Shown here: positions 4,992 to 55,327 of the stretch, in pieces
Layout of the letters: every line of letters starts with the position of its first letter
Position numbering within the stretch: position 1 is the first letter of the stretch
Source of the DNA: a virus
Taxonomy: Duplodnaviria > Heunggongvirae > Uroviricota > Caudoviricetes
Reading direction: 5' to 3' (one strand)
IMG/VR virus record: IMGVR_UViG_3300018475_000095
Length of the DNA: 64,000 nucleotides
Notes under the pieces: generated by a model
What the model was told of the DNA's origin: nothing
The model's database searches: none
What the model saw: only the letters and a program-made list of their open reading frames with translations
Program-made: the position numbers and the translations under genes

Positions 4992-5927
4992 TTATCATAC
5001 AATACAGTGATCTGATTCAATTTCTCTTATGTATGATGAAATTCCTTTAAAAATATTTTTTATTAATTTTGATATCTTAACAGGAGATTCATTAATTAAA
5101 ATATCTTTCGCCTGATTCAATTTTAATCGATCAACGGTATATAAAGATGAAAAAATATCACAATAACGCTCATCTAGACTTCTAAGATGTTTAGACAATT
5201 TAACCGCGCTAAATACTTGTTTATATTTTCCATCTTCAGATTTTTTTGATATAAAAGTATCAGTGTTTATAACTCCATCGATAACTAAAGCATCAATATA
5301 TCTATTCTTTTTAATTAATGATGATACTAAATTATAGCACATTGAATTTATTCTAGAATTCTCTGGATCACTAAATGAATCTTGAAGTGTTATATCATCT
5401 GGATCATCAGTAAACATATCATGGATTCGTTTATGCTTCTCGTAATTTATGGATCTATTTTTATTATTTGCTGCTTGATAAAAAATTTGTCGAGTAGATG
5501 CGATACACATATTTATACATTTATCTGGGCCTTTTGGATCTAAATATATATTATTATTAATTTTGCCAGATTGATCCCATTTAGCAACAGTAATTGGATT
5601 TCCATTCTCGTCTAATGTATTAACAACTAGTTTTCTTTTAGATGAATATTTTTTATTCCAAGATTTATGCTCTAATGCATATAAAATAGCATGAGATAAC
5701 CATTCATAACAATCTTCTTTTGTAACATTCGAAGCATGACTCTTTGCATAGTATTTTTTAATCGCTCCCCAGTATCTGCACATTATAGCGGCAACATACC
5801 CTTCTTTTAAATATGGGTTGGTTTCATATTTCTCATATGAACGGACTAATTCATTTTTATCTATAGTTCTCCAATTTTCAATTCTATCAGCAACTGACTC
5901 ATGAATTTTTTTATACTGTAATAACAT
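4992..5927 (-). CDS. Hypothetical protein, possibly sigma-factor-like; ends TGA-TAA (Trp then stop under UGA=Trp)
   Basis: Start MLLQYKK at 5927 after AGGAGG; EDCYEWLSHAILYALE segment weakly resembles sigma region 2. Confidence 0.45.
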
Positions 5928-6026
5928 ATTATACCTCCTATTTATTACACTATATATTATATGATATAATTTTAAAAATGTATACTGATTTACCAAAGTT
6001 TTTTTAAATTTTTTGAATTTTTTATG

Positions 6027-6060
6027 GATAGGTAGGGATTATAATATTTCCCTACCTATC
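6027..6060. terminator. 12-bp perfect inverted repeat after SNF2 gene
   Basis: GATAGGTAGGGA-10 nt-TCCCTACCTATC immediately past the stop at 6067. Confidence 0.7.
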
Positions 6061-6066
6061 TTTATC

Positions 6067-7764
6067 CTAATTATTATTGTTTTTTATAGCTAAATCTTGA
6101 ATGTATTTTCTCAATATATCGATATTTTCTTCTGATATTTCATCATCTATAACATATTCAGATACTGCTTTTTTATCATTTACAATTTCATCGACCCTTT
6201 CATCAATTGTATCTTTTACAATCAATCTATATATAAATACGGTGTCTTTTGTACCTATTCTATGAATTCGATCCTCTGCTTGACTTGTTACTGCATATGT
6301 CCATGGGGTATCTATAAAGATCATATATGAAGCTGAATTTAACGTTATACCAGTTCCACATTTTTGAGATGTAGCTAAAAAGATCTTATGATCTGGATTA
6401 TTTTGAAAATTATCTATATTGTGGCTGATTGTCGCATCATCTATATCCCCAGTATTAACAGTAGGTTTAAGATCTTTTAACATATTTTCTAACTCATATA
6501 TTGCATCTTTAAATACAGAAAATATAACTACTTTATGACCTGATTCGACTATTTCTCTAGCTAATTCGCATGCCCGCTTTAATTTTGCACTTACGATTGG
6601 TAAAGTAGTTAAGGTGCTTGGGGTAGCAGTCGCTTGTCGTAATCTGCTAACCATTGCTAACAAGGCTGTGTTTGTTATCTCTACTTTATCTACCGAATCA
6701 CATATACCTGCTTCAAGATCTGAATAAAATTTTAACTGGTCTTCATTCATTTCTATATATTCAGATATTATTACTTTTGGAGGGAGATTTAACTCATCAG
6801 ACTTTTTTCTCCTTATAGAAAATTTATTTAACTGATCTTTAAGTATATCTAAGTTTCTATAACCAATAAGCGTATTATTAAATGGTCCAGCATATCTAGA
6901 GTAGTAATACTTAAATGTAGAAAAAGGGGATCTTTCAACTCCTATCCATTTTAAAGGGACATAAGCATCCGCAGGATTATTCGTTAATAAAGTTCCAGTT
7001 AACCCTACTTTATAATCAGCTTCTAATTTTAATAAATTATTACCTTGATCAGTATTAACACTTTTGCAAGCATGTATCTCATCTACAACAATCATATCAA
7101 AAGATGTCCTAGATTTTTTAAATGCAGATATTACTTCATCTTTTCTTAAAGTTTCAATATTAGTTATAACAAAAAATTCTTCAATATCAGATAATATATG
7201 TTCGCATCTAGCTTCAACTGATCCAATAACTGATTTTCCTTTTCTATTTATTCTTTCACCTAATATAGTTGCGCTTAGATTACTATGTTTTTTAATTTCT
7301 TTCTTCCAATTATATTTTAAATTATTTATACCACATATTATTAGACAATGCTTTATCTTACCTTGCTTATAGAGTTCTTCTGCTATATGGATTATTTGAT
7401 AAGTCTTACCTAATCCTGCTTCGTCTAATAACAGCCATGATTTATGATTGAGCCCGTATTGTATTCCTTCGAGCTGATAAGCATAAGGTTTCATGTAGTA
7501 ATTAGATGTATCTAGTTCATATGTAGATTCAGTAATTTCATTTTCATACAACAATTTCAAATCAATAGTATCTATAGATGTCAACTTATCTAAGACTGCT
7601 TGCAATTCAGTTAATGGAATTTCTCATTCTTTTGATTTTTTATCATATACTTTAAGATCTAATGTTTTCATATTTTTAACGATATCCGGATGATAGTCAA
7701 ATGATAAAAATAAAGATGTCAATCCAGGTATTTTTTTAGTTGTTCTCTCTTCTATGTAAATCAT
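6067..7764 (-). CDS. SNF2-family helicase with N-terminal HARP-like segment; in-frame TGA (codon 47) read as Trp
   Basis: ATG at 7764 right after upstream stop; frame open except TGA at 7624-7626 in YDKKSKE*EIP; LLLDEAGLGKT, VVDEIH, QAEDRIHRIG motifs. Confidence 0.9.
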
Positions 7765-7766
7765 TC

Positions 7767-8069
7767 TTATCCTTCAAATAATGTCAATCTGTCAGATGGG
7801 TATTTATTAGATATAAAATCATCACTGAAATCATGTTCGATATCATGCGTAACTGAATATTTTATATCTGCTTTGATTAATAATGCGCATCCACAATGTT
7901 CGCAGCAAAATTGTTCTTGCTTATCTGGATATATACCATAATATGTATCTATTTTACCATCTACCGTTCTTTCAATATCTTTTGGTTGACCAATTAATTG
8001 AGATGGTATAAAAATTTCTCCTGGAAGGTATTCCCAATTACATTTTGGGCATCTTATAATGTCATTCAT
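7767..8069 (-). CDS. Small zinc-ribbon protein
   Basis: CPKC...CEHCG pairs; AGGAG RBS. Confidence 0.6.
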   Translation of the reverse strand: MNDIIRCPKCNWEYLPGEIFIPSQLIGQPKDIERTVDGKIDTYYGIYPDKQEQFCCEHCGCALLIKADIKYSVTHDIEHDFSDDFISNKYPSDRLTLFEG

Positions 8070-8113
8070 AATTTTATCTCCTTTAATTATATTATACAGG
8101 GATAGAAAAAGAA

Positions 8114-8147
8114 AAACAATGAAAAATTAATTTTAATTTCATTGTTT
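8114..8147 (-). terminator. Rho-independent terminator at end of tail/baseplate operon
   Basis: AAACAATGAAA/TTTCATTGTTT inverted repeat followed by a T-rich tract on the minus strand. Confidence 0.65.
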
Positions 8148-8167
8148 CTCCTTTTAAAAATAATTAT

Positions 8168-8890
8168 TTATATCTCACCATCATCTATTATAAAATCTTT
8201 ATTTAACCAATCTTCAAACAAAACTGTAGAACTTGAATCATTTGTACTTAAACTACTATTTATTTTTTGAGGTGTCACTTCTATAAAATCTAAATTATAT
8301 CTTATTTTATAATTAAGTTGGGTTGCAACTTTATTAGACTGACTATCAGTACTATCGGAAGATGGGTTTAATAATGCTATAGGTAAAACATAATAAGGAT
8401 TACCACCATCTTCTCCTTCAAGTATACGAGGACTAAGGTTCGAGTTATCTGTTATTTCACTTATTTCTACTGATAATCCATCATAATAGCTAATTGTTTC
8501 ATCATCTAAAGTTGTAAGAGTATCATTACCTACTAATTCTGAAATTTTTATATTGTTTATCTCTTTATCCTTACTATATTGTAATCTTAACTCTACTATA
8601 TATGAGTTACCACTTTGTATGCCATTAGTATATACTTGTGTGTAGTTATTAATTAACTTTATAAAATAACCACCTATATTACATTCCCCTAGTTTTATAG
8701 TAACCTCATCGCTACCGCTGACTGTGTTATGACCATAAATCACACCCAAACCATTTATTATAAAAGATTGCTCATCAGTTAGTCTGTTTATCAAATTAGT
8801 TATATTATATTCAAGATTTAATCTACCTAAAAAATCATCTCTATTTGCTGCTGGATATATCTTTATATCACTACTTTTAAAATTACCCAT
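8168..8890 (-). CDS. Baseplate/tail-associated structural protein
   Basis: Last gene of baseplate operon; 240 aa; position only. Confidence 0.45.
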   Translation of the reverse strand: MGNFKSSDIKIYPAANRDDFLGRLNLEYNITNLINRLTDEQSFIINGLGVIYGHNTVSGSDEVTIKLGECNIGGYFIKLINNYTQVYTNGIQSGNSYIVELRLQYSKDKEINNIKISELVGNDTLTTLDDETISYYDGLSVEISEITDNSNLSPRILEGEDGGNPYYVLPIALLNPSSDSTDSQSNKVATQLNYKIRYNLDFIEVTPQKINSSLSTNDSSSTVLFEDWLNKDFIIDDGEI

Positions 8891-8904
8891 TTAATACCTA
8901 CCTT

Positions 8905-9417
8905 TTAAGCATTCTTTAAATACATAGTCCATTCAACTATTAAACTAGTACCTAATTCTAAATTTAATACTTCAGGTAATTGAACTCTTGCTAATAGAGT
9001 ACTACCTGTTTCTGTTCCAAATAATCCTATTTCATAAATATCTTGGTCATTTACACTGCTATAAGGAACTATACCTTGAAAAGTAACAGACACTTCCGAT
9101 TTTGTCTCTTTTATAGAACTATCATCTCTGATAGGAACTCTGGACATAGTTAAAGGCTCTTTTAGATCAGTACGAGTAAATATATCTTCAGATGTGGTAC
9201 CTTTACCCAAACCTAAATATCTAGGTGAATAATTTACAGTAGAATCATAAGTTCTTTTCAATAAAACCATTGCTATACCAAAGAATAGGTCTCTGGTTGC
9301 TTTATTATTTATAGATACTGTTTTTAGAATTTTTTTACCTCTAACTACTTTTAACTTAACATTGCCTTCTTCTTTAATAGAACTCTTTATACCTATACTA
9401 TTCATTGTTATCTCCAT
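8905..9417 (-). CDS. Tail fibre attachment/baseplate protein
   Basis: YLGLGKG...EIGLFG...LLARV pattern typical of myovirus fibre-proximal proteins. Confidence 0.5.
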   Translation of the reverse strand: MEITMNSIGIKSSIKEEGNVKLKVVRGKKILKTVSINNKATRDLFFGIAMVLLKRTYDSTVNYSPRYLGLGKGTTSEDIFTRTDLKEPLTMSRVPIRDDSSIKETKSEVSVTFQGIVPYSSVNDQDIYEIGLFGTETGSTLLARVQLPEVLNLELGTSLIVEWTMYLKNA

Positions 9418-10144: not shown

Positions 10145-10158
10145 TTATTTTATGCTCC

Positions 10159-13100
10159 TTATGTTATACTTGAAGGTGTAACTTTTATTTTAGTATTTCC
10201 AAATTCTATTTTTGGAATAGTATATTGATTATACACATGGTTTATATTGAAATAAGAATTTGCTGAAAGAGGGTTTAATACCTTAGCTATATTAGGAACT
10301 TTATAAGTCCAATCAAAATTCTTATTACCATTGATATTATTTATAGCGATTAAAATGTCTTCAAATCTATCATCAGCATTGTAGTCAAATCCTATTTCTC
10401 TGCTATTTAACTCATCAGTATTAACGCCATTAAATTGTTGTATATATTTTAAACTTATTTTACTTTTATTTTCTGCAGTTAATTGACCGTCTGCAATAGT
10501 AGATTCAAATTTGATTTTTAAAGAACCACCACTTACTATTAAAATATAATTTCCTGATTCTGTAATAGGTTCACTTGTTTTAGAAATGTCAACTATCTTA
10601 TCATTTTCTATAGTTATCATATCTTTATTTATATACCCTCTTTCATTAAATATAGTACATTTAGTATTTGTATCTAATGAAACACTTACTGGTATTAAAT
10701 AATATTTCTTTCTATCAACGGTATCAAAACTATAATTTAAATTATACTCAGTAGACAATACATCCTCTACCACCGCAGATAAAGTTAATAAACCATCAGG
10801 AGATCTTTTAATTTCACTATTTGAAACAGGTGTAGTTGCTTCATAATAATAAGCATTTAATTTATACCCATAAGTATTAGTATCTACATCTAATACTTTC
10901 ATATCTATATCAGTGCCACCAGCAAGAATAACTGGATAACTAAATAAAACATTATTAGCATTAGCTTGTGGGAGTACAATAGTATCATTAGTATCTTTAA
11001 TTTTTAAAACCATATGTTGCCCATCTAATAAAACTTGTGGTTCTATTTGATTAGCATTTATCATTAATCTTGATTGAACTCTTATTCTATATGTTATTAG
11101 ATTGTCTATAGATGATATAGTATCGCTTGTGCCATTTAAAGTATAATTTATTGAAACATTTTTAACAATATCATTGTCTTCTGCATCTTTTCCAATATTA
11201 ATTACTTGCATTTTATTTATAGTACTATCGGTGTCACTTAGTTTTATAGCTTCAGCATTCCTACCTGTTAGCCAAATCTTAGAACCTTCATTTAAATTGA
11301 CTATATAATTTTCTTGTGCTTTAATATCTATATCTAATGATTTCCACTCTATATTAATATCTGTATTAGATTCAGAATTTATTATATCATTAAAGCTTAC
11401 TTCTTTGCAATATAAAGATTTACTGCCTTCGGCTAAATATAATGATGTTCCAGAGCCTAATATGACTAAACTACTGCTTTTACTACTTTTATAAATAAAG
11501 TATTCATTTTCCTGCAATATTCTTTCTTCTGTAGATAAATCTAATATATAATTATTACCTTCTACTTTATTCGTTATAAAATAATAATTTGTTTTTGTAG
11601 GTATTGTGATATTTGAAATTTCTTTTATTTCTATTTTTTGACCAGTTAATAAAGTTCCTGAAGAATTTAATGATATATTTGATATTAATACTTTACCAAC
11701 TAATTTACTGTCTTCATTTAAATTTTGTTTCTCTATAGTAGTATTTGTGGCAGGGTCGAGATAAGTAACTTTTATAACATCACTAGCAACTATAGCATGG
11801 GGCTGATTAGGGGTAGTATAATCAAAGTTAATCTCATATCTAACCCTTGCTTGATATGCCTCTAAAGTTACCAATGATGGAGTGATTATTTGAACTAATT
11901 CATTATCTTTTAACTCTAGCTCACCTTCAGTATTTGGATTAGCAGGTATAGTTAAAGTTGCATAAGTAGTTATAGATTGTATAGGGCCAGCAGGGTTATC
12001 AGAATCACCTTTACCTTTAATCTGACCGAAGTCATATTGAAAATCTTCTTGAAATTTAAATAATTGTGATTTTCCTGACAATATCATTTTAGCTAATGTT
12101 TCATCATTTATTGCATCGGTCTTATCGGAATATAATGGAACATTTCCTAAAGCATTATTTTTAATTAAAGTAGGTTCATATGACGGAATATTTAATGCAA
12201 CATTTCGAATTCTTGAGTCTGCATTTTTAATAGTTTCTATCAAATCATTGTAATCTAATTCTTTACCAAAATCTATTTCTCTTGAATTATAGTTTTTATA
12301 TAAAGCCTGTAAAACATTCTTCTCTATATCACCAGCTTCTGACCTAGATACTTTATAGAATGTTGTTATATTCCCTGTTAAAACACATATATTTTGAATA
12401 CCGAAATATGCACCATTAGGATAACTATAATTATGTTGTATGGATTGTAATGCATCTATGCCCTCTTCTACTCTATATCTAGTCAATACGGTGTTGTCTT
12501 GAATAAATGTTCTATTATAATCTTCTTCAGAAGCCATTGTATTTGATTTGTTTAATAAATACAAAACTATGTCGTATGGTCGCAAAGTTGGAGTGCCGTC
12601 TTTTTCAGTAACATATAATTTTTTGTAACTATCATTCAAATCCCATTGAATTATATAATTAGAATTATTCATATCATTGGTTCTATCTGCAATAACACAA
12701 TTTGAAATCAAATTGCCTTCAGTTGTATTTTCTCCTAGATTATATATAGCAGATTGATAATCTTTTCTAGTTACTAGTGTATTAAAAGTTCCAACTGTTT
12801 TCTTATAATTTCTATATGCTTCATCTAAAGTTTCAATATCTTCACCAGTTGTTGAATTAGAATTAGATATTTTTATATAACTATTGATAATAACATCACT
12901 ATCATTGTTTTTAACTTTAATATCACTTTTAAAAGTGTTTAATACTTGAGATTTAACTGCTCCAGCTGTTCCTTGTGTTGTAGTATAAAATATACTTAAA
13001 CCACTACCTATTAAAGTATCTATATCTTGAGGGAATTGAATGTAACAAGTGTCATTATTTATGGATACACCAAACTTAAATACACGAGAGCCACTTTCAT

Positions 13101-13815
13101 ATTCTGCAAGATTATCTACTATCTTCCAAGTACCTGAATTAGAATCTATCTCATCATTTCTAAAGGATGATGGCTTAAAATTACTCTCTTTACTATCATA
13201 TACAAATATTCCATTTTGAGCAATCATATTATCTGTAAAATAAAGTCTTAAATCTTCATCTAAATTATCTATAGTTATATTATAATTGCCATTTATTTCA
13301 TATTTATGAATACTACCTTGAATAGCTTTAACTGTAACTATACTATTTAATTCTTTTAATTCAGCAGATGTTTCAAGAGTAGTATAGATTTGTTCACCAG
13401 TACTATCTACTATTACTGTACCTGACTCTATATTTATACTAGATATATCTAAACCTTCATTTTTTGAATTTATTTCTTCTATTGAATTTAATAATGAAAA
13501 TGAAATGTCACATATTGCTGATTTATACCAATGCATATTATAACCAGCTAAATCATATAGTTGCCTTGCACTTGCTTGTTGAGTTAAGGACAGTGGGAAT
13601 GCCTCTAATATATTTTTATCACAGTGATAGTTATTTTTATCAGCAATAATTGCATTTTCTTTTAATAAAACAACACCTGGGTCTGATTCATTTGATAGAC
13701 TTGGGTCCCATTTATTTGACAATTTTTTAGCTGTATCTAAAAGTTCAGGATAAATAGTTCTAAAATCACTATTTGTATAACTCATATTGGCTATAATTTT
13801 TTCATTTTCAGTCAT
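10159..13815 (-). CDS. Baseplate wedge protein (gpJ/T4 gp6-like), 1218 aa
   Basis: SYTNSDF...WD...ESDPGVVLL, ETLDEAY...LVTRKDY motifs. Confidence 0.8.
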   Translation of the reverse strand: MTENEKIIANMSYTNSDFRTIYPELLDTAKKLSNKWDPSLSNESDPGVVLLKENAIIADKNNYHCDKNILEAFPLSLTQQASARQLYDLAGYNMHWYKSAICDISFSLLNSIEEINSKNEGLDISSINIESGTVIVDSTGEQIYTTLETSAELKELNSIVTVKAIQGSIHKYEINGNYNITIDNLDEDLRLYFTDNMIAQNGIFVYDSKESNFKPSSFRNDEIDSNSGTWKIVDNLAEYESGSRVFKFGVSINNDTCYIQFPQDIDTLIGSGLSIFYTTTQGTAGAVKSQVLNTFKSDIKVKNNDSDVIINSYIKISNSNSTTGEDIETLDEAYRNYKKTVGTFNTLVTRKDYQSAIYNLGENTTEGNLISNCVIADRTNDMNNSNYIIQWDLNDSYKKLYVTEKDGTPTLRPYDIVLYLLNKSNTMASEEDYNRTFIQDNTVLTRYRVEEGIDALQSIQHNYSYPNGAYFGIQNICVLTGNITTFYKVSRSEAGDIEKNVLQALYKNYNSREIDFGKELDYNDLIETIKNADSRIRNVALNIPSYEPTLIKNNALGNVPLYSDKTDAINDETLAKMILSGKSQLFKFQEDFQYDFGQIKGKGDSDNPAGPIQSITTYATLTIPANPNTEGELELKDNELVQIITPSLVTLEAYQARVRYEINFDYTTPNQPHAIVASDVIKVTYLDPATNTTIEKQNLNEDSKLVGKVLISNISLNSSGTLLTGQKIEIKEISNITIPTKTNYYFITNKVEGNNYILDLSTEERILQENEYFIYKSSKSSSLVILGSGTSLYLAEGSKSLYCKEVSFNDIINSESNTDINIEWKSLDIDIKAQENYIVNLNEGSKIWLTGRNAEAIKLSDTDSTINKMQVINIGKDAEDNDIVKNVSINYTLNGTSDTISSIDNLITYRIRVQSRLMINANQIEPQVLLDGQHMVLKIKDTNDTIVLPQANANNVLFSYPVILAGGTDIDMKVLDVDTNTYGYKLNAYYYEATTPVSNSEIKRSPDGLLTLSAVVEDVLSTEYNLNYSFDTVDRKKYYLIPVSVSLDTNTKCTIFNERGYINKDMITIENDKIVDISKTSEPITESGNYILIVSGGSLKIKFESTIADGQLTAENKSKISLKYIQQFNGVNTDELNSREIGFDYNADDRFEDILIAINNINGNKNFDWTYKVPNIAKVLNPLSANSYFNINHVYNQYTIPKIEFGNTKIKVTPSSIT

Positions 13816-14186
13816 TACTCTACCTCATCTCCTGTCAATTTAATATTATAAGTATCTAATTGATAGTCTAATAAATTTGTTCCTTTTATAGTTATATAAA
13901 CATTGTATTTATCAGATGTAACAGTTATATCTTTCCTTGTAACTAATAATTGTGGTATAAAAGTTTCTATAGTAGTTAATATATCATCTATTATTATGTC
14001 TCTTATTATCACATTATTTTGATCAAATAATAATCTTTTCCACAAAGTGCCAAAGTATGGGTCTCCAAACAATGAGCCTCTATCTGACAACAAAACTAAT
14101 TTCAAATTTTGCACGGTTGCATCATGGTCAGATATAAGTTTAGTAGTCACACTTGAAACCATATCAGGAAAATTTATAGAATACAT
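13815..14186 (-). CDS. Baseplate protein gp25/gpW-like
   Basis: GSLFGDPYFGT...LLF...IETFIPQL motif. Confidence 0.8.
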   Translation of the reverse strand: MYSINFPDMVSSVTTKLISDHDATVQNLKLVLLSDRGSLFGDPYFGTLWKRLLFDQNNVIIRDIIIDDILTTIETFIPQLLVTRKDITVTSDKYNVYITIKGTNLLDYQLDTYNIKLTGDEVE

Positions 14187-14188
14187 TG

Positions 14189-34090: not shown

Positions 34091-37000
34091 TTAACCTCAG
34101 AATATAATCCCATCTCTTAATGCAGATGGCTTATAAGGTGTAGCTGAACCAAATCCAAAATCTATTGGTTTAAACGCATTAGAATTAGATTGGTTATTTT
34201 CTTTAAATTTAGCATTATTTTCTTGTTTATTTTCAATAGAACTGCTTTTATCTAATATTTTTTGCTTTTGTTTTGATAGAGGATCTAGTAAATTTTTTAT
34301 CTCTTCTTCAAATTCTATATTTATTTGTTTTTTAGTATAACTATCATTTGCTGTAGCATTACTTACTTGTAATGTTGTATCTAAACTTTCTCCGAAATCA
34401 AAAGCAAATTGTTCTGCATTTTTAGATGCATTAAATAATGCTCCACATACAGCATCGCACACGTCTTTTCGTCCACCATCAGGGTGATCTACTTTTCCAG
34501 TATTTATATTTCTTTCTAGATCTATAATTTCATCAATTAAAGTTTTAGAATCATATATTTCTAGTCTTTTCTCATAAATTGTAGATTTAAAATTTTGATA
34601 AGGTTTACATATATGATCTGAATCTACTCTATCAACAGATAAAACACTATACTTATATCCTTTAGCAAGTAATGCTTGACCTGTATCATAACTTTGGAAA
34701 GTATCTGTCGTGATACCTTGAATATTAAATCCTTGTTCTTTTAACCAATAAATAAAATTTCTATTCTTTTCAAAAGATATTTGATATCCTTTTGGTGCTT
34801 TAATCGAAACTGAAAAAGCAAGAGTATAAAATAAATCATTTGATTGATTTTCAGTTGTACTTAGTTTTTTACCTTTAATCCAAACACCTGCAATACCAGT
34901 CATATCTCCGCTTACTGACATATCTAGATGAATAAACAAAGGTCTACTCTTTAATCTTTTATTTACTTTACTTAAATCAAATAAATCATAGTATTGTATC
35001 TTATCTTCTTGACTATTTCCTATTTCTAATATATCTTTAATAAATGGATTTTGTAATTCAAGATTTTTAATTTCTTGTACTGCAACACCAGAAATATATT
35101 TACTAATTTCACTTGATGATATACCAGCAAAGTCACATAATGCTCTTTCAATATCATCTAAAAAGTTTGATTTAAAATCTATAGGAACTTCAATTATTTT
35201 ATAGCCTTTATCTCTCCATATATCTACATCATCATTAGTAGGTATAACTTGAGACATCAAGAACTTATTTCCTAAAGCTACATTAAATGTTTCTTCTTTA
35301 TAAGTACCTTTTGGCTTAACTTTCCAAACAGGTTCATCAACAATTAAAACATTTTCTTTCTCAGATTTTAATTTCTTTTTAATATGCTCTTCAAGGAATG
35401 ATTTTTCACTTCGTTTCGAAGATGCTAAAGCAAGTAAAGTAGGATTTATACCTTTATAAATAAACCTTGTTTTCATACCCCCAATAGCGGTATCAATCAT
35501 ATTAATTGCTTTTTCTTTTTGTTTATCTATATCTTGATTTCTCATAAATGAAATTTCATCAAAGAAAGCAAAGAAAATAGGCAAACCAATCAAGTCATCT
35601 GCTTGGGAACCAATTATTATATTGATATAATCAGGTGGAACCCATTTTAAATTAGTCCTACCTTCCATAGTTCCTCTTGCCATAAACCATGGTGAAAGTT
35701 TTACTGTGTTTTGAAATTTACTAATACCAATTTCTTCTGCTAAAGCTAATTTAATATTCATAAAAGCAAAACATATTTTTTCAGTTGGTTTTAAGTGAAA
35801 AAATTCAATTGGGTTTTTCAAGCACATTATCCTGTACATTAGATAACAAGCAACAGCAACAGCGATTTCGGAATTATGTGTAACTATACAATTATCAGTT
35901 AAATACAAATGATCATCACTATTAATCATTATGCATTGACATTCAACTTTTCTAGACAATTCAATTGATTCTATAGCTCTACTAGGATTTAAAGAATTAG
36001 GATTAATTCTAGATAGTTTTCGTGATAATTTAAATGGTTTTATTTCTTTAGGTAATTTTATAGAGATAGTATAGCTTGTATTACATTCTATAACTTTCCC
36101 ATCTTTTTTATATTTACCTGTAACTTCTTTGTATTGAGCTACACCACCTAATGATTGTACTAGATAAATAAAATTGTCACAAAGTTGTGAACTGATTGTA
36201 TTAAATTGGATTGTTGATCCATTTTTTGTTATTGTACCATCAGTATCCATTAATCCTTGTAATAATTCAATTCTATCTTCGACTGAGCTATGTAAATAAA
36301 TATTTGGTATAAATTTATCAGCTGAAGATTTTATCAGATTTAAATCATGTAATGCTTCAACAAAAGGATTTGGTTCGGCGACAGGATTACCTTTAGGACC
36401 AACAGTAAATTTTTTTACTTTTTGAGAAAATATATATCCATACTTACATGATGGTAATGGGCTTATTTTTATGTTATCAAATGTTTTATCTAATTTATTT
36501 GATATATAATCGATTAATTCTTTATCTGCACTTGTTAATGAACATGAGTTTCTTCGGATACAGCCATCGCCTAAAATTACCCCTAATATATATGGATCAA
36601 TTAGTAGTTCTTTTTTCTCAAACTCAATTGGCTTAGTTACAGGTATATAATAAAGATGTTCTTTATATTTACCTTGTTTTACCTTAATTAATGGTTTGTC
36701 GAATAACTCTTGCAAATGAATAGTTTTCTTATACTTATAATTATTTTTTGGCAAAATTGTCCAAAGATGTTCTTTACAACATTCAGTAGTTGTTTTATCT
36801 GTAAAAGTTATTTTATAAACATCTTTAACACCTTGCGGAAAAATATGAGTGACGATATGTGGCTTACCATCCGCTCCAATTACATTCATACCAGGTTTAA
36901 TTGATCCCATAGGAATAAACCCATCAGATGTCATAACTTTACTATCTAATGGTTGTGCTTTACCTAAACCTCTTGCTCCTGATTCAATAAATGTATTTAC

Positions 37001-37276
37001 ACTAGTTGAAATATTATCCGGAAATAATTTTTTTAATTTTTCTCTTCAAAAAGGATATAATTTAGATTTACCTTCAGCATCATGTCAAGCATGTCCTAAA
37101 TAATTATTGTCATCTAAGAATGTTTCTATGTCTACGGGTATCTCGTTATAATCTGCGTATTTTAAATCTTCAAATACTTTAGAGGTACCTTCTTTTGAAA
37201 ATTCTTCTAAAATACTTAAAGCTAATTTTTTCTCTTCTTCTGAAAGATTATTTAATTCATCGAAATTATAAGTCAT
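34091..37276 (-). CDS. Terminase large subunit, 1061 aa precursor with intein; three in-frame TGA read as Trp
   Basis: One frame from ATG 37276 (AAGGAG) to TAA 34091 apart from TGA at 37085, 37046 and 34097; Walker A GARGLGK|S, FFDEIS Walker B, HLDMS and KDVCDAVCG nuclease motifs. Confidence 0.9.
35873..36958 (-). mobile_element. Class-3-type intein with LAGLIDADG homing endonuclease (362 aa)
   Basis: Starts Ala (GLGK|AQPLDSKV), ends VTHN|S; block B HLW, block F CQCI, block G T (WCT triad); LGVILGDG and LQGLMDTDG LAGLIDADG motifs. Confidence 0.9.
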
Positions 37277-37301: not shown

Positions 37302-38081
37302 TTAGTTATCAAATTTAAACATTTCACGTTCTCTAGGAGATAATTCAGACATTAAATCTTCAATATCTAATAAATCTTCTAAGTCATCTTTTTCTCTATC
37401 TGGATCTATATTTATTAGGTCATCTTCTATTTCATAACTTACATTATCTACTTGAATTATTATAGAAGGTTTCTTAGTTAATATAATATCCAAATCTTCA
37501 TAATCATAGTAATCTTTTAATTCTCTGTCTAAATGGTATCTTATTTCTTCGATAGCATCTTCATAACTGTCAAAAGTAAATTCCAATGCTCTATTAGTTA
37601 ATCTATTCAAACCTCTGAATATAGCTTGTTGTTTTTTATATTCCTTACCTTCAAGAGTTTCTCTTACAACTAGCACTGGATATTTCTTATCCCAACCAAA
37701 TAATTCTCCAAGAGTAAACATTCTATGTCTACCTTCTTGCATATTTTCAGCATAATTTAAAACTGTTATAGGAAATTTTTTCTTTTGTTTTAAGATAACA
37801 TTTTTTAAATGTTCAAGATCTTCTGATTCACGTTGAATTTGTTTATATTGCTTTTCAAAAGTGCTATCGAATATTTCTGCACATGCTTCAAAATATTCTC
37901 TAGGGCTAAGCATTTCAATAGAAGAAGTTGTTTTAAAATATTTATTTGTATTTTCTGGATCTCGTAAATAATCTGTATACTTTGACATTTCACTTTTTGT
38001 TACATCAAAATATTGATTATTTTCTATGTTACCAGTTCCATAATCATTTAAGTAAATTCTATTTTCTTTTAAAAATTTCAT
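37302..38081 (-). CDS. Protein with ParB/Srx-like motif
   Basis: PITVL...QEGRHR...YPVLVV ParB-N-type signature. Confidence 0.5.
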   Translation of the reverse strand: MKFLKENRIYLNDYGTGNIENNQYFDVTKSEMSKYTDYLRDPENTNKYFKTTSSIEMLSPREYFEACAEIFDSTFEKQYKQIQRESEDLEHLKNVILKQKKKFPITVLNYAENMQEGRHRMFTLGELFGWDKKYPVLVVRETLEGKEYKKQQAIFRGLNRLTNRALEFTFDSYEDAIEEIRYHLDRELKDYYDYEDLDIILTKKPSIIIQVDNVSYEIEDDLINIDPDREKDDLEDLLDIEDLMSELSPREREMFKFDN

Positions 38082-39385
38082 TAAAATACCTCTGTAATAA
38101 GAGCATCGTTTAATCTATCATTAAAAATGCTTTCGTCAAATTCCATTCAACTGTATTGAGGTTCTCTAAAATAGAAATCTTCTGCTGTATAATTAACAAA
38201 AGCTTCTTCTGTTGAACAACCTTTTATATAATCATATAGATCTAAAATATCTTTGTCTGTTAAATAGATTTCATAATGTTGAGTTTCTTGATTTGCTTTA
38301 TACTTAAAAGGTATAGCCTTATCTAAAGCTTTATTAAAATCCTTAACACATGCTTCTTGACTACCTACATTATATGCATCATTTACAGCCATATTGATAG
38401 CATCATGTAAAGCATCATTTTCATTTAATTCATTAATTAAATTATCTAAAGAAATATTATGATCTTTTAGTATTTCTTTATTTGTGTCATTTAAGTAAGT
38501 GGTGATAAAATCTAATTCTTCCGCTGAATATCAATAAGGTGTTCAATCTCATTGTTCATAAATATCACCGGTCATACAAGAAAGTAAAAAATCTTCTGAC
38601 CAAGTTCTGTTAGAAAGCCCTTCAGCTAATTTACTCATTCTAACATCTAAAATAGAATAATTATCATCGAAAGGTTTCAACCCTTCTAATTTCTCTCTGA
38701 TTAAAGGTTTATAAAAATTATATAAATTTTCATTACCTGAAGTTACAAAGAAAGATTTTACATCGATAGGATCATCATCCATATCCATAAAAGAACCTGA
38801 CTCAAAATGAAATTGATATTTATCATTAGTTCTTTTATTTATGTTTATATACAAAGGTCCTTGATCAGTATACATATCATAATAATAGTCACTTGAAGTT
38901 GATGCAGTACACCAACTTGTATCTCTACCTAACTTACAACTAGCTTCATAAGTTTTAGGAATATATACTTTTCAATTAGAGTCTTCATAAACTAATTCAG
39001 CGTCTTTTTCAATATCAGAAGCTCTTACAGCTTTTTGAGTCTGTCTTAATTCTTGTCTTTGAGATAGTTCTTTATATGAATTTTTATCATTTAGATAGTT
39101 ATCTAAATCTTCAAGAGATTTAAAAGTCATTATATCTTTATTTTTAAGATTTTTCTTATTCTCTTCAAATCTTTTTAATATATCGGTAACATGCCCAATA
39201 TTATCTAGTTTGTTTTTATTAGCAAGACTTAAAATCCATTTAGCATAAGTTCCTGCAATATCACCACCTTTATATGTAGGATCTAGTTGAATTAATGCTA
39301 AATATTTTTTATCATCAATTTTTGGAAAATATTTTTTTAAATCTCATATATCTTCCAATAATAATTCTTCTCTTAAAAATCGCAT
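38081..39385 (-). CDS. 434-aa phage protein hidden by six in-frame TGA (Trp); WCT-motif, PcfJ-like (tentative)
   Basis: ATG 39385 after AGAGGA; TGA at 39344, 38972, 38549, 38543, 38531 and 38147 all in frame; ends TAA overlapping next ATG (TAATG); joins track ORFs 38549..38875 and 38147..38392. Confidence 0.8.
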
Positions 39386-40449
39386 TGTTTAAAATCCTCT
39401 ACAAAAGTATCATACACCTCAGTTAATTTATAACTTTTATCAAATATAATTTGTTTATAATTATTTGCTTTACAATCAATTAAAATTCTAACTTTTTGTT
39501 TCTTATTATTTTTATTAACTATATAATATTTATGAATAATAATTCTACTTCCTAAATATGTTCTAGTTTTAATATCTAAATTATAATCAATAATTAAATC
39601 TTTATAAGCAGATTTCTTTTTATTTAATATATACAGTATTTTTTCTTTAATTTCTTCTAACTTTACTTCTTTAGGTTGCTTTCTATCTGATATCTTTGTT
39701 AATATCTTTTTTAATATAATTGCTACTATTAAAATTAAAATATAAACTATTAGTGCAATTGGAGGACCATTTCCCTCTTTACCAAAGAATATGTCTAACC
39801 CAGGTATTCTCATAAATAATAACATGCAATATAAACCTATGAATTTACATATTGCATTTACTATAACATAAAATGAAAAATTCATTTTAATTGAACCTAC
39901 TACTAATGATATTAAATCATCTGGGAATATAGGAAATAAAACAGTAGCACCATATATCCATTTACCTGTCTTACTATTTAATTTTTTACTCCATAATTCA
40001 TAATCTTCATTAGAACCTGCTACCCATTTTATAGCTGGTTTACCGAATGTTCTTCCTATCCAGTATGATGCTATAGCACCTGTTATAGTGGCAGAGCATA
40101 CAAATACAACAAAAAATAAAGTAGTTAGACTAAATAAATTTGCTATCTCATTTCCATTAGCAACTAAATTAGGTATTTGATTACAAGCTACCAAAATAGG
40201 TAATGCTGGAATTGGAATTATAGCTACTTGAGCAAACATAATCACTCAGATTATTGCATACACCAACCAACCAGACTTACCTTCTATAAGACCAGAACCA
40301 AAAAATTCTTCTATTGCAGGTATCTCAAATATACCTTCTGATATAGCCATAAATGCCATGCATATTATAATAACTCTTAAAGCTTTCTGCCACTGCTCTA
40401 TAGTTACTTTGTTTAATAATTTTTTTATTATATTATCTTCTCTTTTCAT
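39373..40449 (-). CDS. DedA/VTT (TVP38/TMEM64-like) membrane protein; in-frame TGA at 40246
   Basis: Track ORFs 40246..40449 and 39373..40245 are one frame joined by TGA (YAII*VIMFAQV); GAIASYWIGR.FG and LFPIFPDDLI motifs. Confidence 0.8.
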
Positions 40450-40570: not shown

Positions 40571-40954
40571 TTAAAAACTAGATAAAGTTTGTTTAGATGA
40601 TTTAACCTCAACTTCAATACCTTGTTCTTTTGCTATTTGTTTAACTTGTTCAGATACTCCATAAACTGCTGCTTCTATCAATGTTTTTAAATGTGGGTTA
40701 TTAGTCATATTAGGGAATTTAGCTAATACTTCATTTAAAACATATTCATATTTTTCTTTACCAGTTTTCTTTCCTAAATTTGGGTAAAGTTGTTCTGCTG
40801 CTTTTACTGCATTTGTTATGAAATTATCTACTCGTTTATCTTGAATCTTTGCTTTTAATTTTGCAAATAAAATAGAACCAAAAGTTGTAATTAAAGTAGC
40901 AATAACAACGCCTGCTATTTTAACTCCATAATCTAAAATTATTGACCAATCCAT
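40571..40954 (-). CDS. Holin (LL-H family-like)
   Basis: One N-terminal TM helix then AVKAAEQLY...GKEKYEYV...IEAAVY. Confidence 0.7.
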   Translation of the reverse strand: MDWSIILDYGVKIAGVVIATLITTFGSILFAKLKAKIQDKRVDNFITNAVKAAEQLYPNLGKKTGKEKYEYVLNEVLAKFPNMTNNPHLKTLIEAAVYGVSEQVKQIAKEQGIEVEVKSSKQTLSSF

Positions 40955-44899: not shown

Positions 44900-44908
44900 T
44901 TATTTCTC

Positions 44909-46981: not shown

Positions 46982-47031
46982 CTATTATCCTCTTATAACA
47001 TAAGTTAAGTATTTCTATAAAACTATTTTAA

Positions 47032-47679: not shown

Positions 47680-47691
47680 TTATGAATTCCT

Positions 47692-48051
47692 TTATAATTT
47701 TATATTGATTGTTAAATTATCTGTTACGCTTTCTATAAAAATGTTTCCATTAGAGTACACTATAGGTGTAATATTTAAGTTACCCATAAGTATCTCAACT
47801 ACAGCATTACTAATATCATAGCCCTCAAATGCAGTTATAGTAGCAGAAAAAGATTTTCTATCTAAGATATAATTAACTAATGTAGAACTAAAACAATTAG
47901 TTAAATTATAATCAACTTTAAATACTTTTCTAGCTTCTGCAATAATAGTTATATTACCATCTAATGGGCTGACTAAAATAGATGCAGCTTCACATTCTTC
48001 TGGTATTATTAACTTATTTTCAGCAAATAGTTGAATATTAATTCTCTTCAT
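47692..48051 (-). CDS. Small beta-rich protein with N-terminal INIQLFAE motif
   Basis: MKRINIQLFAENK; C-terminal part resembles bacterial B-repeat modules. Confidence 0.45.
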   Translation of the reverse strand: MKRINIQLFAENKLIIPEECEAASILVSPLDGNITIIAEARKVFKVDYNLTNCFSSTLVNYILDRKSFSATITAFEGYDISNAVVEILMGNLNITPIVYSNGNIFIESVTDNLTINIKL

Positions 48052-50917: not shown

Positions 50918-50919
50918 TA

Positions 50920-51378
50920 TTATTCTCCTTGCTCATTATATCTAGTTATTGTTAACCCAGCATGAATAGTATTACCTTTTATACTATCTGTCCCATTATA
51001 GATAACCCCTATTGCTTGTAAATCATCTTCTAGATTTTTAGTTATAGTATTATTGTCGATATTTACTGAAACATCTATAGTATTATTTTCATTATCTACG
51101 ATAACAGAAGCTGTGTTATTTGAAGATTTTCCTGTGTAAGCATCTACTTCAGAAAGCTCTATTTTTACATCTGTCTGGCCATCAAAAACAAATTCTTCTT
51201 TGTCTCCTGTTGAACTATTTTTTACAATAGTTAAATTACCTGGTGTCTTTAATACTTGACCACTTATTTCATTATTTTTATTATCTATATTTAATTTTAA
51301 AGTACCATCTGTATTTTTATATGAATACTTTTTAATTATAGTTTCAGAATTTAATTTTACATATAAGCAATTACTCAT
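50920..51378 (-). CDS. Fibre-associated protein
   Basis: IDNNTITKNLEDDLQAIG motif shared with 47032 and 57602. Confidence 0.45.
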   Translation of the reverse strand: MSNCLYVKLNSETIIKKYSYKNTDGTLKLNIDNKNNEISGQVLKTPGNLTIVKNSSTGDKEEFVFDGQTDVKIELSEVDAYTGKSSNNTASVIVDNENNTIDVSVNIDNNTITKNLEDDLQAIGVIYNGTDSIKGNTIHAGLTITRYNEQGE

Positions 51379-51395
51379 TAATATACCTCATTATA

Positions 51396-51409
51396 TAATA
51401 AATTTAGCA
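51396..51409 (-). promoter_or_regulatory. Putative late promoter motif TGCTAAATTTATTA (copy 2)
   Basis: Exact copy 17 nt upstream of ATG 51378. Confidence 0.55.
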
Positions 51410-51419
51410 GGAATAAAAA

Positions 51420-51791
51420 TTACTCCTGCATCCAAAATTCTGTTTTATCAATTATTGTAATAACGTCATAGTCATTTTCTGCTACATATTTTCTCAATTT
51501 TATTTGGTAATAATATTTACCAGGAATTAAAGCAACTGTATCTTCAGGTTCTATTTTTATCAAAATATTTCCACAATCATCATATTTTAAGGTATTTTTA
51601 TTATACTTCTTCTTAACTAACGCACACTCGAATGGTTGATTTGGTTCCATTATACCTAAATATAATTCATCTTTTTCATCTATATCATATCTAGTAGGGC
51701 ATAAATCACTCCCCTCATTTATAAATAAAGGATATTTAGCACTATCACCTCTAGTTAATTCAATCATATTATTTGAAACATTAGTTGACAT
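51420..51791 (-). CDS. BppU-like baseplate upper protein N-terminal domain
   Basis: IELTRGDS...IKIEPEDTVALIPGKYYYQIKL pattern. Confidence 0.65.
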   Translation of the reverse strand: MSTNVSNNMIELTRGDSAKYPLFINEGSDLCPTRYDIDEKDELYLGIMEPNQPFECALVKKKYNKNTLKYDDCGNILIKIEPEDTVALIPGKYYYQIKLRKYVAENDYDVITIIDKTEFWMQE

Positions 51792-52381
51792 TACTTTAAT
51801 CTCCTATAATTTTCTAAATCTTTTTCTCTTGCATTATCTAATAATTCTTTTGAGCTCATAAGTTTTGTTGCTCTTAATTTTAATAATGCTTGTTTATTCT
51901 CAATTCTTTGCTGTTTAGTTTCTTTCCATCTTTGTAAAACTTTTGTAGCAGAGAAAGATAAAACAGAAAATAGAGTTGCTGTATAAAATGTATTCATATC
52001 AGTTGCTGATTTTATAAAACCTAATGGACTTATTAAATTAAATAACCAATTAGATATTGCATTTCCAGTAACTGAATCTAAATTAAATATAACTAATAAA
52101 CCAGTTATTATGAATACTGAAAAATATACCCAATCAATTGATGATTGTTGTTTTATATTCTTTTTAGATAATTTCACTATTTTAATATCCTTATAAACTT
52201 TTTTAAACTCTTCTGATACTTCTACTGATTTTTCTTTGTTATGTATTTTTACACCAAAGAATGATAAGAATTTTAAAAACCATTTAGTTACTAAACCTAG
52301 TAACTTTTTTATTGCTTGCGTAATATGTCCAAAGGTAAAAAATAATATAACTAATAATATTGTTGATATAGCTGCTATCAT
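51791..52381 (-). CDS. Membrane protein (3 predicted TM segments)
   Basis: Hydrophobic segments at N-terminus and middle; basic C-tail. Confidence 0.5.
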   Translation of the reverse strand: MIAAISTILLVILFFTFGHITQAIKKLLGLVTKWFLKFLSFFGVKIHNKEKSVEVSEEFKKVYKDIKIVKLSKKNIKQQSSIDWVYFSVFIITGLLVIFNLDSVTGNAISNWLFNLISPLGFIKSATDMNTFYTATLFSVLSFSATKVLQRWKETKQQRIENKQALLKLRATKLMSSKELLDNAREKDLENYRRLK

Positions 52382-52382
52382 T

Positions 52383-52904
52383 TTATTTACCTCTTAAATA
52401 TTCTTCTATATACCCTGCACATGAATATTCATAATAAGTTAGACCTCTAAAATCTTGGTCTGCTATTGCTAATGCTACTTGTTTAAAATAATCTATACCA
52501 CTTTCATATAAAATTAACCAAGCATAATAGTTAGTAAACCTTTCATCAACTGTATAATATTTTAGATGAGTTATCTCATGGGTTAAAGTGAAAGTATACA
52601 TTTCTAAACTTAAACCAAATTCTATATCTATATGGAAAGTAATTAAATTTGCTTTACCTAAAACATTTCCTGGTAAATCTTTTTTTGATAAAGAATAATT
52701 TACATTTGTTAATTTATCTATTTCTTCTTTAATTATTTCTTCATTCCAGTTAAGTGGTCTTATTATATTATAATCTAATTTTGCCCAAGTATAATCCTTA
52801 TAAGGCAACATATGTATAAATTTTATTCTTACAATAAAACAAGATGCGAATATCAATAAAGCAATTGCTAATGAATCTATTATGCCCCATATTTTTTTAA
52901 ACAT
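52383..52904 (-). CDS. Membrane-anchored zinc metallopeptidase-like protein
   Basis: N-terminal TM/signal, TLTHEITHL (HExxH), downstream DERFT; start MFKKIW at 52904. Confidence 0.55.
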   Translation of the reverse strand: MFKKIWGIIDSLAIALLIFASCFIVRIKFIHMLPYKDYTWAKLDYNIIRPLNWNEEIIKEEIDKLTNVNYSLSKKDLPGNVLGKANLITFHIDIEFGLSLEMYTFTLTHEITHLKYYTVDERFTNYYAWLILYESGIDYFKQVALAIADQDFRGLTYYEYSCAGYIEEYLRGK

Positions 52905-53044
52905 AATAATACCCATGTTTCATATATTACTAAGCTAGGTGCATATACTAACCAAAAATTTAATGGTGTAGTCATTGTAAATGCAATTGCTGTCATTGCT
53001 ATTAAAAATAAAATTCTGAATATTTTGTGTTTTAATTTAGTCAT
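52880..53044 (-). CDS. 54-aa two-TM protein (below track cutoff)
   Basis: ATG 53044; MTKLKHKIFRILFLIAMTAIAFTMTTPLNFWLVYAPSLVIYETWVLLCLKKYGA; TAA 52880. Confidence 0.5.
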   Translation of the reverse strand: MTKLKHKIFRILFLIAMTAIAFTMTTPLNFWLVYAPSLVIYETWVLLCLKKYGA

Positions 53045-53064
53045 CTTAAAATTGTCCTTTTAAA

Positions 53065-54099
53065 TTATTCTACTACTGCAACTGTATCACTTATCGTTGC
53101 TTGTGCTGTTGTCAATTGTATTATTTCAATTCCAGTTGATGTTGCTACTGTAAATTCAAAATAATTTCCCATATTATAATCAAAATATAATATAGTGCCT
53201 AAGAATGTACTATTTTCACTATATACATAACCACTCAATGGGTAATCAACTGCCCCTGTTATCATATTTATTAATTGTCCATAAGTAGTTACTAAAACAT
53301 TACTTCTATTTAAACCAACTACTCTAGCATTTATTTGTTGGCCAGAATCATTTGTGCCATTTATTGAGACATTATGCTTATATAAAGCAGCCTCTGCTTT
53401 TGTTGCAACTTGTTGACCATTTTGGTAGATAGTTTTACCATATATATTATTCCAAGGTAAAGCGGAAGTACCTAAATCAGCTGTACTTGTATTTGCTCTA
53501 ATAGAACTAGCTTGAAGAATTATTTGGTCTGTTGCTTTATTTAAATGCACACCCTGATTACTATTAGATAAAGTTATATTTCCCATCTGGAATGAGAATC
53601 TAGCAGTATCTTCATCCCCATTTTCATCTGTTATTGTACTTTCCCAATTCCATCCATCTTCAGTGAATACTTGAAAAGTATCACAATCTAAACTTAAGTC
53701 AGTAGCTCCTTCACCTATATGCAATGGTTTATTACTTTTTAAATATGCTACATCTGATACCGAATCAACGCTAAAGGTTAATTGACCACTATCTGAAACT
53801 AATGAGGAACTCCCTGTAGCACCAATACTACTTGAAATATCTATCCAGTTAGAGCTTGTTGTATCTTTATTAAATTTATATATATGTCCTTGCAAGTAGG
53901 TGCCAGAATCTTTACATATAAACACATCTCCTGTCTTGTATAAACTAGATTCTATGGTTGTAGCTAATTCCATATCCGCATTAGAGATACTATAATTAGG
54001 TAAATCTATTATAAAATATTTTTTACTTGAATCAATAGAAGATAAAGCTAAATATTGAGCTTTTGTACCATACCAATCTGCTTTATTAAGAACTTTCAT
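53065..54099 (-). CDS. Tail fibre protein with adaptor module and DLG...PWNNIYGK repeat
   Basis: KDSGTYLQGHIYKF...WIDIS module; TADLGTSALPWNNIYGKTIYQNGQQV fibre motif. Confidence 0.6.
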   Translation of the reverse strand: MKVLNKADWYGTKAQYLALSSIDSSKKYFIIDLPNYSISNADMELATTIESSLYKTGDVFICKDSGTYLQGHIYKFNKDTTSSNWIDISSSIGATGSSSLVSDSGQLTFSVDSVSDVAYLKSNKPLHIGEGATDLSLDCDTFQVFTEDGWNWESTITDENGDEDTARFSFQMGNITLSNSNQGVHLNKATDQIILQASSIRANTSTADLGTSALPWNNIYGKTIYQNGQQVATKAEAALYKHNVSINGTNDSGQQINARVVGLNRSNVLVTTYGQLINMITGAVDYPLSGYVYSENSTFLGTILYFDYNMGNYFEFTVATSTGIEIIQLTTAQATISDTVAVVE

Positions 54100-54102
54100 T
54101 TA

Positions 54103-54351
54103 CTACTCCTTAATTTCTTCGAATATGTCGTCAAAGCCTTCTTTCTCAATTTTAGTTTCTAGAGAGAAGTTAGGTTTGAATCCATAACCCATAAACATAT
54201 TATTAACGTATTCGTTACTCAAGTACCACTTATTGTTTGTATAAATAAAAGTACCCTCATTATCAATTAATGTTAATTCATTACCATTTGCTAATATATT
54301 ATTAGATATATTTTTAAAAGGTATTTTTATTTCGTCTTTTACCTTGAACAT
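54103..54351 (-). CDS. 82-aa hypothetical protein overlapping 3' end of DGR RT
   Basis: ATG 54351 after AAGGAG; overlaps RT by 38 nt. Confidence 0.5.
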   Translation of the reverse strand: MFKVKDEIKIPFKNISNNILANGNELTLIDNEGTFIYTNNKWYLSNEYVNNMFMGYGFKPNFSLETKIEKEGFDDIFEEIKE

Positions 54352-55327
54352 GTATATACTCCTTTATATAACCTTCAAATGAACCTTTATAATTGGTGTA
54401 TTGGTTGCTATTTATCCCATATTTTGATCTAAGGTATTTCTCTTTTCTAAATAAGTTCTTTCGAGTTTTATATGAATTTTTATTTGTTATTTTACCATTA
54501 GATTGTAAACGGAATTGAATTTTTAACCAAGTAAATTGTTTTAATTTACTGATAGTTGTCTTATTTTTATTTATAATTATTTTTAATTTATTACAAACTT
54601 CGTATATTACTCGCAGACAGTTTTTTAATTCTTCTTTACTACTGCATATCAGATAACAATCATCTACATATCTACCATAAAATTTAATATGTAATTTTTC
54701 TTTGATTAAATGATCTAACTCATTAACATAGAACAAAGAATTTATCTGCGAAATTTCGCTTCCTAATGCTATTCCTTTCTCTCTACTGGCTTTCTCTATA
54801 AAATGTTTATACAGATTATATATCTTATCGTCTTTTATATAATTTCTTGCTTTACTTAATAGAATATTATGATCTATATTATCAAAATATTTGCTAAAAT
54901 CTATCTTTAATATATAACCTTCATTAGTATGATATCTTTTATAGTATTTATTTAAATGTACAAATAATCTATCTAAAGTAAATATATAGCCTTTACCATT
55001 TATTGTAGCTCCATTATCATATATTAAGGATCTTCCGAGTAGATTGTTTAAGTAATATCTACATAAGCATTTTTGTACAATTCTTTCACTAATATGTGCA
55101 GCTTTTATATTTCTAGTTCTTCCTCTGCAGCTTTTAGTGAATTCAAAGTATCCAGGTGATTTGTAACTCCCAGCATGCAATTGTCTAAATATTCTATTTA
55201 CTAATCTATGCTTTTGAATTTCAAAATTTTGGATGCTTTGCTTTCATCTAACATTTCTAAAGCATAGATTAGCACAAACCAATAAATTTTTATATGTAAA
55301 AACTTCTTTAAAAGTTTTATTTTTCAA
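54314..55327 (-). CDS. DGR reverse transcriptase, 337 aa; in-frame TGA (Trp) at 55244
   Basis: TTG start 5 nt after AGGAGA; NVR*KQSIQ; AAHISERIVQK, YDNGA..GKG, LKIDFSKYFDNIDH, LGSEISQ, YGRYVDD motifs. Confidence 0.93.

Follow-up and report, generated by a model that had tools for sequence, protein, structure and literature searches.

In Mycoplasma and Spiroplasma (NCBI code 4), UGA is the major tryptophan codon genome-wide and release factor 2 (RF2) is absent, and the opal suppressors derived from the tRNA-Trp of E. coli are Trp-type tRNA bodies that read UGA. In phages, the recoding of TGA to tryptophan has been described for the Agate, Jade and Sapphire clades of large (~127-210 kb) animal-gut phages, which have in-frame TGA codons at Trp positions and encode TGA suppressor tRNAs (Borges et al., bioRxiv 10.1101/2021.08.26.457843). 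TGA stops were lost before or alongside recoding in these phages, their close relatives use the standard code and code differences occur between near-identical genomes; recoding is heavy around lysis cassettes and in homing endonucleases, and structural genes belong to the typical recoded set (10.1101/2021.08.26.457843). The screen applied in that study was based on a coding-density gain of >5% for contigs of ≥100 kb (10.1101/2021.08.26.457843). Blocks of TAG-to-Gln or TGA-to-Trp recoding have also been described in crAss-like and Lak phages (PMC7886860; PMC9523058). We analyzed a 64,000-nucleotide stretch of a caudoviricete, IMG/VR record IMGVR_UViG_3300018475_000095 (the whole stretch is referred to below as the window), for which a first-pass annotation had proposed that UGA is recoded to tryptophan in the manner of code 4. 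The phage fits the known kind of TGA-to-Trp gut phage, in an unusually sparse form.

Assemblies from JGI, ENA and Logan repeatedly contain this genome, as contigs of 154,387-154,576 bp; among the samples in which it occurs are the JGI metagenomes 3300018493, 3300018494 and 3300024268 and SRR703xxxx runs. Walking out from the window start, with identical sequence in the overlaps, added ~38 kb of new sequence (loci L036-L046; contig ERZ27248457:k141_2053462, 154,409 bp, which matches the window at 99.98% identity across the 12.3 kb that they have in common), such that the extended analysis covered 102 kb of the genome. Related contigs and walked segments are designated by locus numbers (L001 and so on).

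In-frame TGA codons and stop usage

Thirteen in-frame TGAs (low coordinates 4995, 7624, 34097, 37046, 37085, 38147, 38531, 38543, 38549, 38972, 39344, 40246 and 55244) are spread over six minus-strand open reading frames (ORFs), all of which are open under translation table 4; our recount reproduced exactly the positions and the number of genes initially given. The six genes, and an intein within one of them, are as follows.

4992..5927, minus strand: conserved gene of unknown function, 310 aa from Met 5927, with one additional residue if TGA 4995-4997 is sense; TAA at 4992-4994
6067..7764, minus strand: SNF2-family helicase, 565 aa (Pfam SNF2-rel_dom, Helicase_C and HARP); TGA 7624-7626 (W47)
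34091..37276, minus strand: large terminase (TerL), 1061 aa, with three TGAs, 37085-37087 (W64), 37046-37048 (W77) and 34097-34099 (W1060)
35873-36958, minus strand: 362-aa intein with a LAGLIDADG endonuclease, inside TerL, lying in the P-loop directly after its lysine (GARGLGK / A...THN / SEIAVA)
38081..39385, minus strand: P0001, a conserved phage protein of unknown function, 434 aa, with three TGG codons and six TGAs, 39344 (W14), 38972 (W138), 38549 (W279), 38543 (W281), 38531 (W285) and 38147 (W413)
39373..40449, minus strand: DedA/VTT-domain membrane protein, 358 aa (Pfam VTT_dom); TGA 40246-40248 (W68)
54314..55327, minus strand: reverse transcriptase (RT) of the retron or diversity-generating retroelement (DGR) type, 337 aa from TTG 55327 (Pfam RVT_1); TGA 55244-55246 (W28)

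The 67 ORFs of the window contain 188 Trp codons if these TGAs are counted (175 TGG and 13 TGA), giving a TGA share of 7%, and TGA-bearing genes account for 9% of the total (6/67).

Alignment with homologs, a check that the first-pass annotation had itself called for, gave tryptophan or TGG at 10 of the 13 sites: SNF2 W47, RT W28, TerL W64, W77 and W1060, DedA W68, and P0001 W14, W138, W279 and W413. W47 of the helicase, located in an N-terminal HARP-like domain, is invariant across 29 homolog clusters with identities down to 31%, and under code 11 this gene appears in many assemblies as pieces of 46 aa and 512 aa. W28 of the RT lies inside a V-x-W-K-x-S motif and is invariant in 32 homologs, which include standard-code (table-11) calls from JGI and an NCBI protein from Spirochaetia. 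In TerL, W64 corresponds to TGG in L005, L001 and L003, and W77 to TGG in L010 and L001. The penultimate codon, W1060 (...GIIFWG), is a sense codon, because it aligns with the last TGG codon of the standard-code L010 protein (...GIIVW, followed by the stop). DedA W68 is TGA both here and in L002 and TGG in L005 and L001, and the reverse exchange is seen at W61, which is TGG here and TGA in L005 and L001.

P0001, the gene with most TGAs, has 322 homologs at E values of 0.001 or better, 38 of which were aligned for column counts. W138 is tryptophan in 35/38 and W413 in 36/38; column 279 contains W or F, with W in the closest relatives, and column 14 is also W in the closest relatives. Because some close relatives are themselves recoded, the codons were read directly in the DNA of six relatives. 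In-frame TGA is absent from the standard-code contigs L008 and L010, in both of which columns 138 and 413 are TGG (as is column 279 in L010), and TGA and TGG are freely exchanged at columns 14, 138, 158, 279 and 413 in the closer relatives L001, L002, L005 and L009.

P0001 matched no Pfam or PHROG family. Its AlphaFold2 model (predicted local distance difference test score of 88) gave nothing with E<0.3 in a Foldseek search against PDB, and VIA-align retrieved small sub-domains only (best Z 5.9), with no clear PDB fold; comparison with AlphaFold Database clusters yielded uncharacterised proteins and weak PcfJ-like matches only. Fusions of the N-terminal ~210 residues to leucine-rich-repeat (LRR_5) domains also occur, and in a PA5oct-like jumbo phage a homolog is annotated as a structural protein.

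Two further side observations concern the TerL and RT loci. The TerL intein starts with Ala, not with Cys or Ser, and is absent from L005 and L010; in L001, a related 82.6-kb contig, the terminase frame (11705-13818) undergoes a one-base shift precisely where the intein is inserted (GARGLG-N...), and this shift may be genuine or a product of misassembly. A short table-4 ORF that contains two TGAs and separates the RT from the gene next to it (55408-55605, minus strand) is probably not a gene, corresponding instead to a DGR template-repeat region.

Stop usage pointed in the same direction. The 68 ORFs called with table 11 end in TAA (45), TAG (19) or TGA (4), and all four TGA ends belong to the 13 sites, two lying inside the 434-aa gene and two being followed by TAA 0 or 1 codon later. 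No other gene of the window has a terminal TGA, so the statement that the remaining genes end in TAA or TAG held. On counts from called genes, TGA terminates 19/44 genes in L008 and 4/16 in L010, both standard-code relatives (25-43%), as against 0/12 in the recoded relative L009 and 0-2/67 in the window; at p=0.25, the probability of ≤2/67 TGA stops is ~1e-6. Over the 102 kb, 121 table-4 ORFs terminate in TAA or TAG alone, and very few TGAs are found near C-termini. TGA has been lost as a terminator in this phage.

Reading through the TGAs brings back abutting or overlapping gene junctions and places Shine-Dalgarno-like motifs upstream of the restored starts, as had been claimed together with TAATG coupling: the 434-aa gene has a 13-nt overlap with the DedA gene and one base in common with the start that follows (TAATG), and the SNF2 start lies two bases past the preceding stop. 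It was also correct that standard-code ORFs fragment the terminase, helicase, DedA, RT and 434-aa genes, all of which are open under table 4. The gain from re-calling is nevertheless small, as coding density in the 64-kb window rises from 94.6% with the standard code to 97.0% with table 4 (+2.5 points).

The TGAs are not consensus or assembly errors, because exact TGA-bounded code-11 fragments recur on 24-25 contigs drawn from the JGI, Logan and ENA assembly collections, which are independent of one another. The fragments searched were a 945-aa piece of TerL, 108-aa and 81-aa pieces of P0001, a 288-aa RT and a 512-aa SNF2, and overlapping loci from other samples were 99.98-100% identical to the window. 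Several suspected strain polymorphisms between TGG and TGA (split Metallophos and Rad50 genes, a TerL piece of 526 aa and an SNF2 variant of 458 aa) proved not to be recoding events: L041 and L042 differ by one mismatch and two gaps only, the TerL piece merely ends early and the SNF2 variant changes frame near its end.

A tRNA with a UCA anticodon and an additional arm

The window itself contains no tRNA. A cluster of 16 tRNAs, including a tRNA-Trp(CCA), lies outside it in the same genome, and the search for a tRNA-Trp(UCA) recommended by the first-pass annotation was successful, in that a 97-nt UCA tRNA with a Trp-type acceptor end was found ~33 kb before the window start and ~3.3 kb after the end of the cluster.

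L046 15311-15407: 97-nt tRNA, anticodon UCA (TCA), detected by ARAGORN and by the Rfam tRNA model (38 bits)

Its acceptor stem (5' AGGGG / 3' CCCCU) is of the A1-U72 type and its discriminator base is G, features matching the identity elements of bacterial tRNA-Trp. The loop of the anticodon arm is CUUCAAA. At the position of the variable arm there is an extra 6-bp hairpin with the loop CUCCAAA, which is the anticodon loop of tRNA-Trp(CCA), and this second arm could, to judge from its sequence, present tryptophanyl-tRNA synthetase (TrpRS) with the CCA anticodon that it normally reads. ARAGORN labels the molecule 'SeC', due to the anticodon and the long extra arm.

The two-arm motif was detected on 17 IMG/VR phage contigs (~13-177 kb), often beside a tRNA-Trp(CCA), and we found no description in the literature of a design combining a UCA anticodon with a CCA-loop hairpin. 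Some of the contigs with a two-armed UCA tRNA also carry transfer-messenger RNA (L054, L055, L056, L061 and L062) or a tRNA with the anticodon CUA (L059 and L060). Just upstream of the tRNA cluster, L046 contains two tRNA-like genes whose anticodon region is interrupted by 54-60 nt of inserted sequence (8091-8209 and 8412-8545; Rfam tRNA 40.6 and 38.5 bits), both missed by ARAGORN, and a weak 66-nt tRNA-like match (7961-8026).

Probable tryptophan decoding, its alternatives and the sparse use of TGA

The phage probably decodes UGA as tryptophan, a reading to which we would assign a probability of roughly 0.85, because the TGAs lie inside conserved genes, relatives have tryptophan at the corresponding positions of the informative sites, TGA stops have been purged and a UCA tRNA is encoded. 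The decoding proposed at first was in this respect supported, but the description 'code 4-like' overstates the case, given that only 13/188 Trp codons and 6/67 genes are concerned. The Trp-like contexts reported for the TGAs were borne out at ten of the 13 sites, the exceptions being 4995, P0001 W281 and P0001 W285.

Several points weigh against this reading. Column 285 of P0001 is aromatic, being mostly Y with W in 4 sequences, and column 281 is variable, with G in some homologs; the latter is the only place at which glycine, the residue specified in advance as contradicting tryptophan, was seen, and it was not found in conserved homolog columns. The TGA at 4995, the single TGA of table-4 ORF 4992-5996 and the last codon before its TAA, is uninformative: the homologs of this gene begin at query residue 24 and their C-termini are not conserved, so that sense or stop cannot be assigned from them. 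The amino acid on the UCA tRNA is deduced from its sequence features, and without its extra arm this tRNA shows no particular similarity to the tRNA-Trp(CCA) that the phage also encodes (42/74 identities), which also disfavours a recent copying of the one from the other.

The alternative that survives best is that the host itself uses code 4, with TGA read as Trp and no RF2, and that the phage follows its host, the UCA tRNA merely boosting supply. TGA is indeed never needed as a stop in the window, and phages matching code 25 hosts are known, but a native code-4 host is unlikely because this AT-rich genome overwhelmingly uses TGG and its family relatives use TGA stops. At 28% GC, 93% of its Trp codons are TGG, the opposite of the codon usage of long-established code-4 genomes such as Mycoplasma, and same-family relatives end 25-43% of their genes in TGA. 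Moreover, TGA is found in only 6/67 genes, whereas phages matched to recoded hosts have it in ~90% of their genes, and the phage brings its own dedicated decoder tRNA.

It is less probable still that translation truly ends at the TGAs, with the six genes split, truncated, decaying or expressed through rare leakage at UGA. The table-11 fragments still begin with start codons and two of the TGAs are almost immediately followed by TAA, but essential genes are hit (TerL would lose its N-terminal 114 residues, including part of the P-loop), the frames are open and conserved on either side of the TGAs, and the TGA columns are Trp columns that swap with TGG. Leakage at the level of a few percent cannot pass six TGAs in one conserved gene, and the state is fixed across the 24-25 assemblies. 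The assignment of TGA to another residue (glycine as in code 25, selenocysteine or cysteine) is the least credible alternative, as the 'SeC' label of ARAGORN is set against homolog columns at P0001 138 and 413, SNF2 47 and RT 28 that are W, without G, C or U, and against the AGGGG acceptor, discriminator G and CCA-loop arm of a tRNA resembling bacterial tRNA-Trp.

If UGA is read as tryptophan, its use is far from random. Ten of the 13 TGAs fall within 6.4 kb just downstream of the holin gene (40571-40954), in the DedA gene, which directly follows it, and in P0001 and TerL. When the 13 TGAs were assigned at random among the 188 Trp codons (20,000 trials), neither as few as six TGA genes nor ten TGAs within 6.4 kb was ever obtained, and six TGAs in one gene occurred in 0.005% of trials. 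None of the 54 Trp codons of the structural block (baseplate, tail, capsid and portal) is TGA (P=0.01).

In the mechanism that we envisage for this decoding, the host would use the standard code and its TrpRS would charge the UCA tRNA, possibly via the decoy CCA arm; once expressed, the charged tRNA would outcompete RF2 at UGA, and full-length terminase, 434-aa protein, DedA membrane protein, helicase and RT would be made only thereafter. The TGA-to-Trp change known from gut phages seems to be at an early stage in this phage, or to have been kept deliberately limited. We suggest, tentatively and as a possibility that we would not favour at present, that the sparse, clustered TGAs constitute a deliberate translational gate, rather than drift, or else a snapshot of incipient code change. 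A gate could operate such that TerL, the membrane protein encoded beside the holin, P0001, the SNF2 helicase and the DGR-type RT are made only once the two-armed tRNA is active, with the structural genes exempt.

Genomic context and comparison with known systems

The window has a GC content of 28.3%, with all sizeable ORFs on the minus strand, and its modules were assigned from PHROG and Pfam matches:

Low end of the window: replication module with a single-stranded DNA-binding (SSB)-like protein, primase, DnaB-like helicase, helicase loader and the SNF2 helicase
~8.2-34 kb: myovirus structural block with baseplate wedge and hub, tail tube, sheath, head-tail adaptor, major head protein, prohead protease and portal
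Beyond the structural block: the large terminase, then two genes without family matches, then the DedA/VTT membrane protein
40571-40954: holin (phrog_6918)
44.9-51 kb: large genes without annotated function, two of which match PHROG families of unknown function, with the reverse transcriptase beyond

Because its relatives carry Gp23, Portal_T4 and gp13 domains, this ~154-kb gut phage is assigned on sequence grounds to the T4-like myoviruses. A megablast of 20 kb of the window against GenBank phages gave no match, and a single-protein scan of IMG/VR with P0001 revealed no close relative. In the walked sequence just before the window start, a family-A DNA polymerase is split (448 aa + 331 aa) by a 311-aa LAGLIDADG-type gene (L036 11832-15549), an arrangement that suggests an intron or intein-like insertion. 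A GIY-YIG/NUMOD3 endonuclease in the walked region, outside the window, is also split by TGA.

For annotation, table 4 is needed, as table 11 breaks the terminase, helicase, membrane protein and reverse transcriptase genes and hides the 434-aa gene. Density screens would class this phage as standard-code because its recoding is so sparse, and it would probably have escaped the screen of Borges et al., because the gain of 2.5 points, computed on the 64-kb window, lies below the >5% threshold. Recoded phages may therefore be undercounted in surveys and, if the reading as incipient change is true, many 'standard-code' phages could be cryptically recoded. With its TGA stops purged and a suppressor gained, yet only 7% of its Trp codons converted, the phage offers a useful intermediate for studies of the onset of code change, and follow-up data may be obtainable, as the genome has been assembled repeatedly in metagenomes (at least 24 contigs).

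The phage shares with those of Borges et al., a study reportedly published in Nat Microbiol in 2022, TGAs at Trp sites, a suppressor tRNA, the absence of TGA stops, standard-code relatives, a recoded homing endonuclease and a recoded membrane protein by the lysis cassette. It differs from them in extent, with in-frame stops in a mean of 26-71% of genes in the Borges clades but in 9% of window genes, and 7% of Trp codons, here, and in distribution, since the virion structural genes are wholly standard and the helicase and RT are recoded. As in the crAss-like and Lak phages, the code of the phage would differ from that of its host, suppressor tRNAs are present and only part of the genome is recoded; unlike them, it belongs to a T4-like myovirus lineage (Gp23/Portal_T4), the stop codon concerned differs in most cases and its recoded genes lie dispersed and do not make up a single contiguous late block. 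The reading of UGA as Trp by a tRNA-Trp with the anticodon UCA is common to this phage and the code 4 of Mycoplasma and Spiroplasma, but in the phage UGA is rare among the Trp codons and occurs in few genes, the decoder is phage-borne and the predominance of TGA among Trp codons typical of Mycoplasma is absent (13 TGA versus 175 TGG at 28% GC). The putative Trp-type body reading UGA recalls the E. coli opal suppressors, from which the phage tRNA is distinguished by its true UCA anticodon and its CCA-loop hairpin. What remains of interest in this phage is how sparse and clustered its recoded codons are, together with its two-armed suppressor tRNA.

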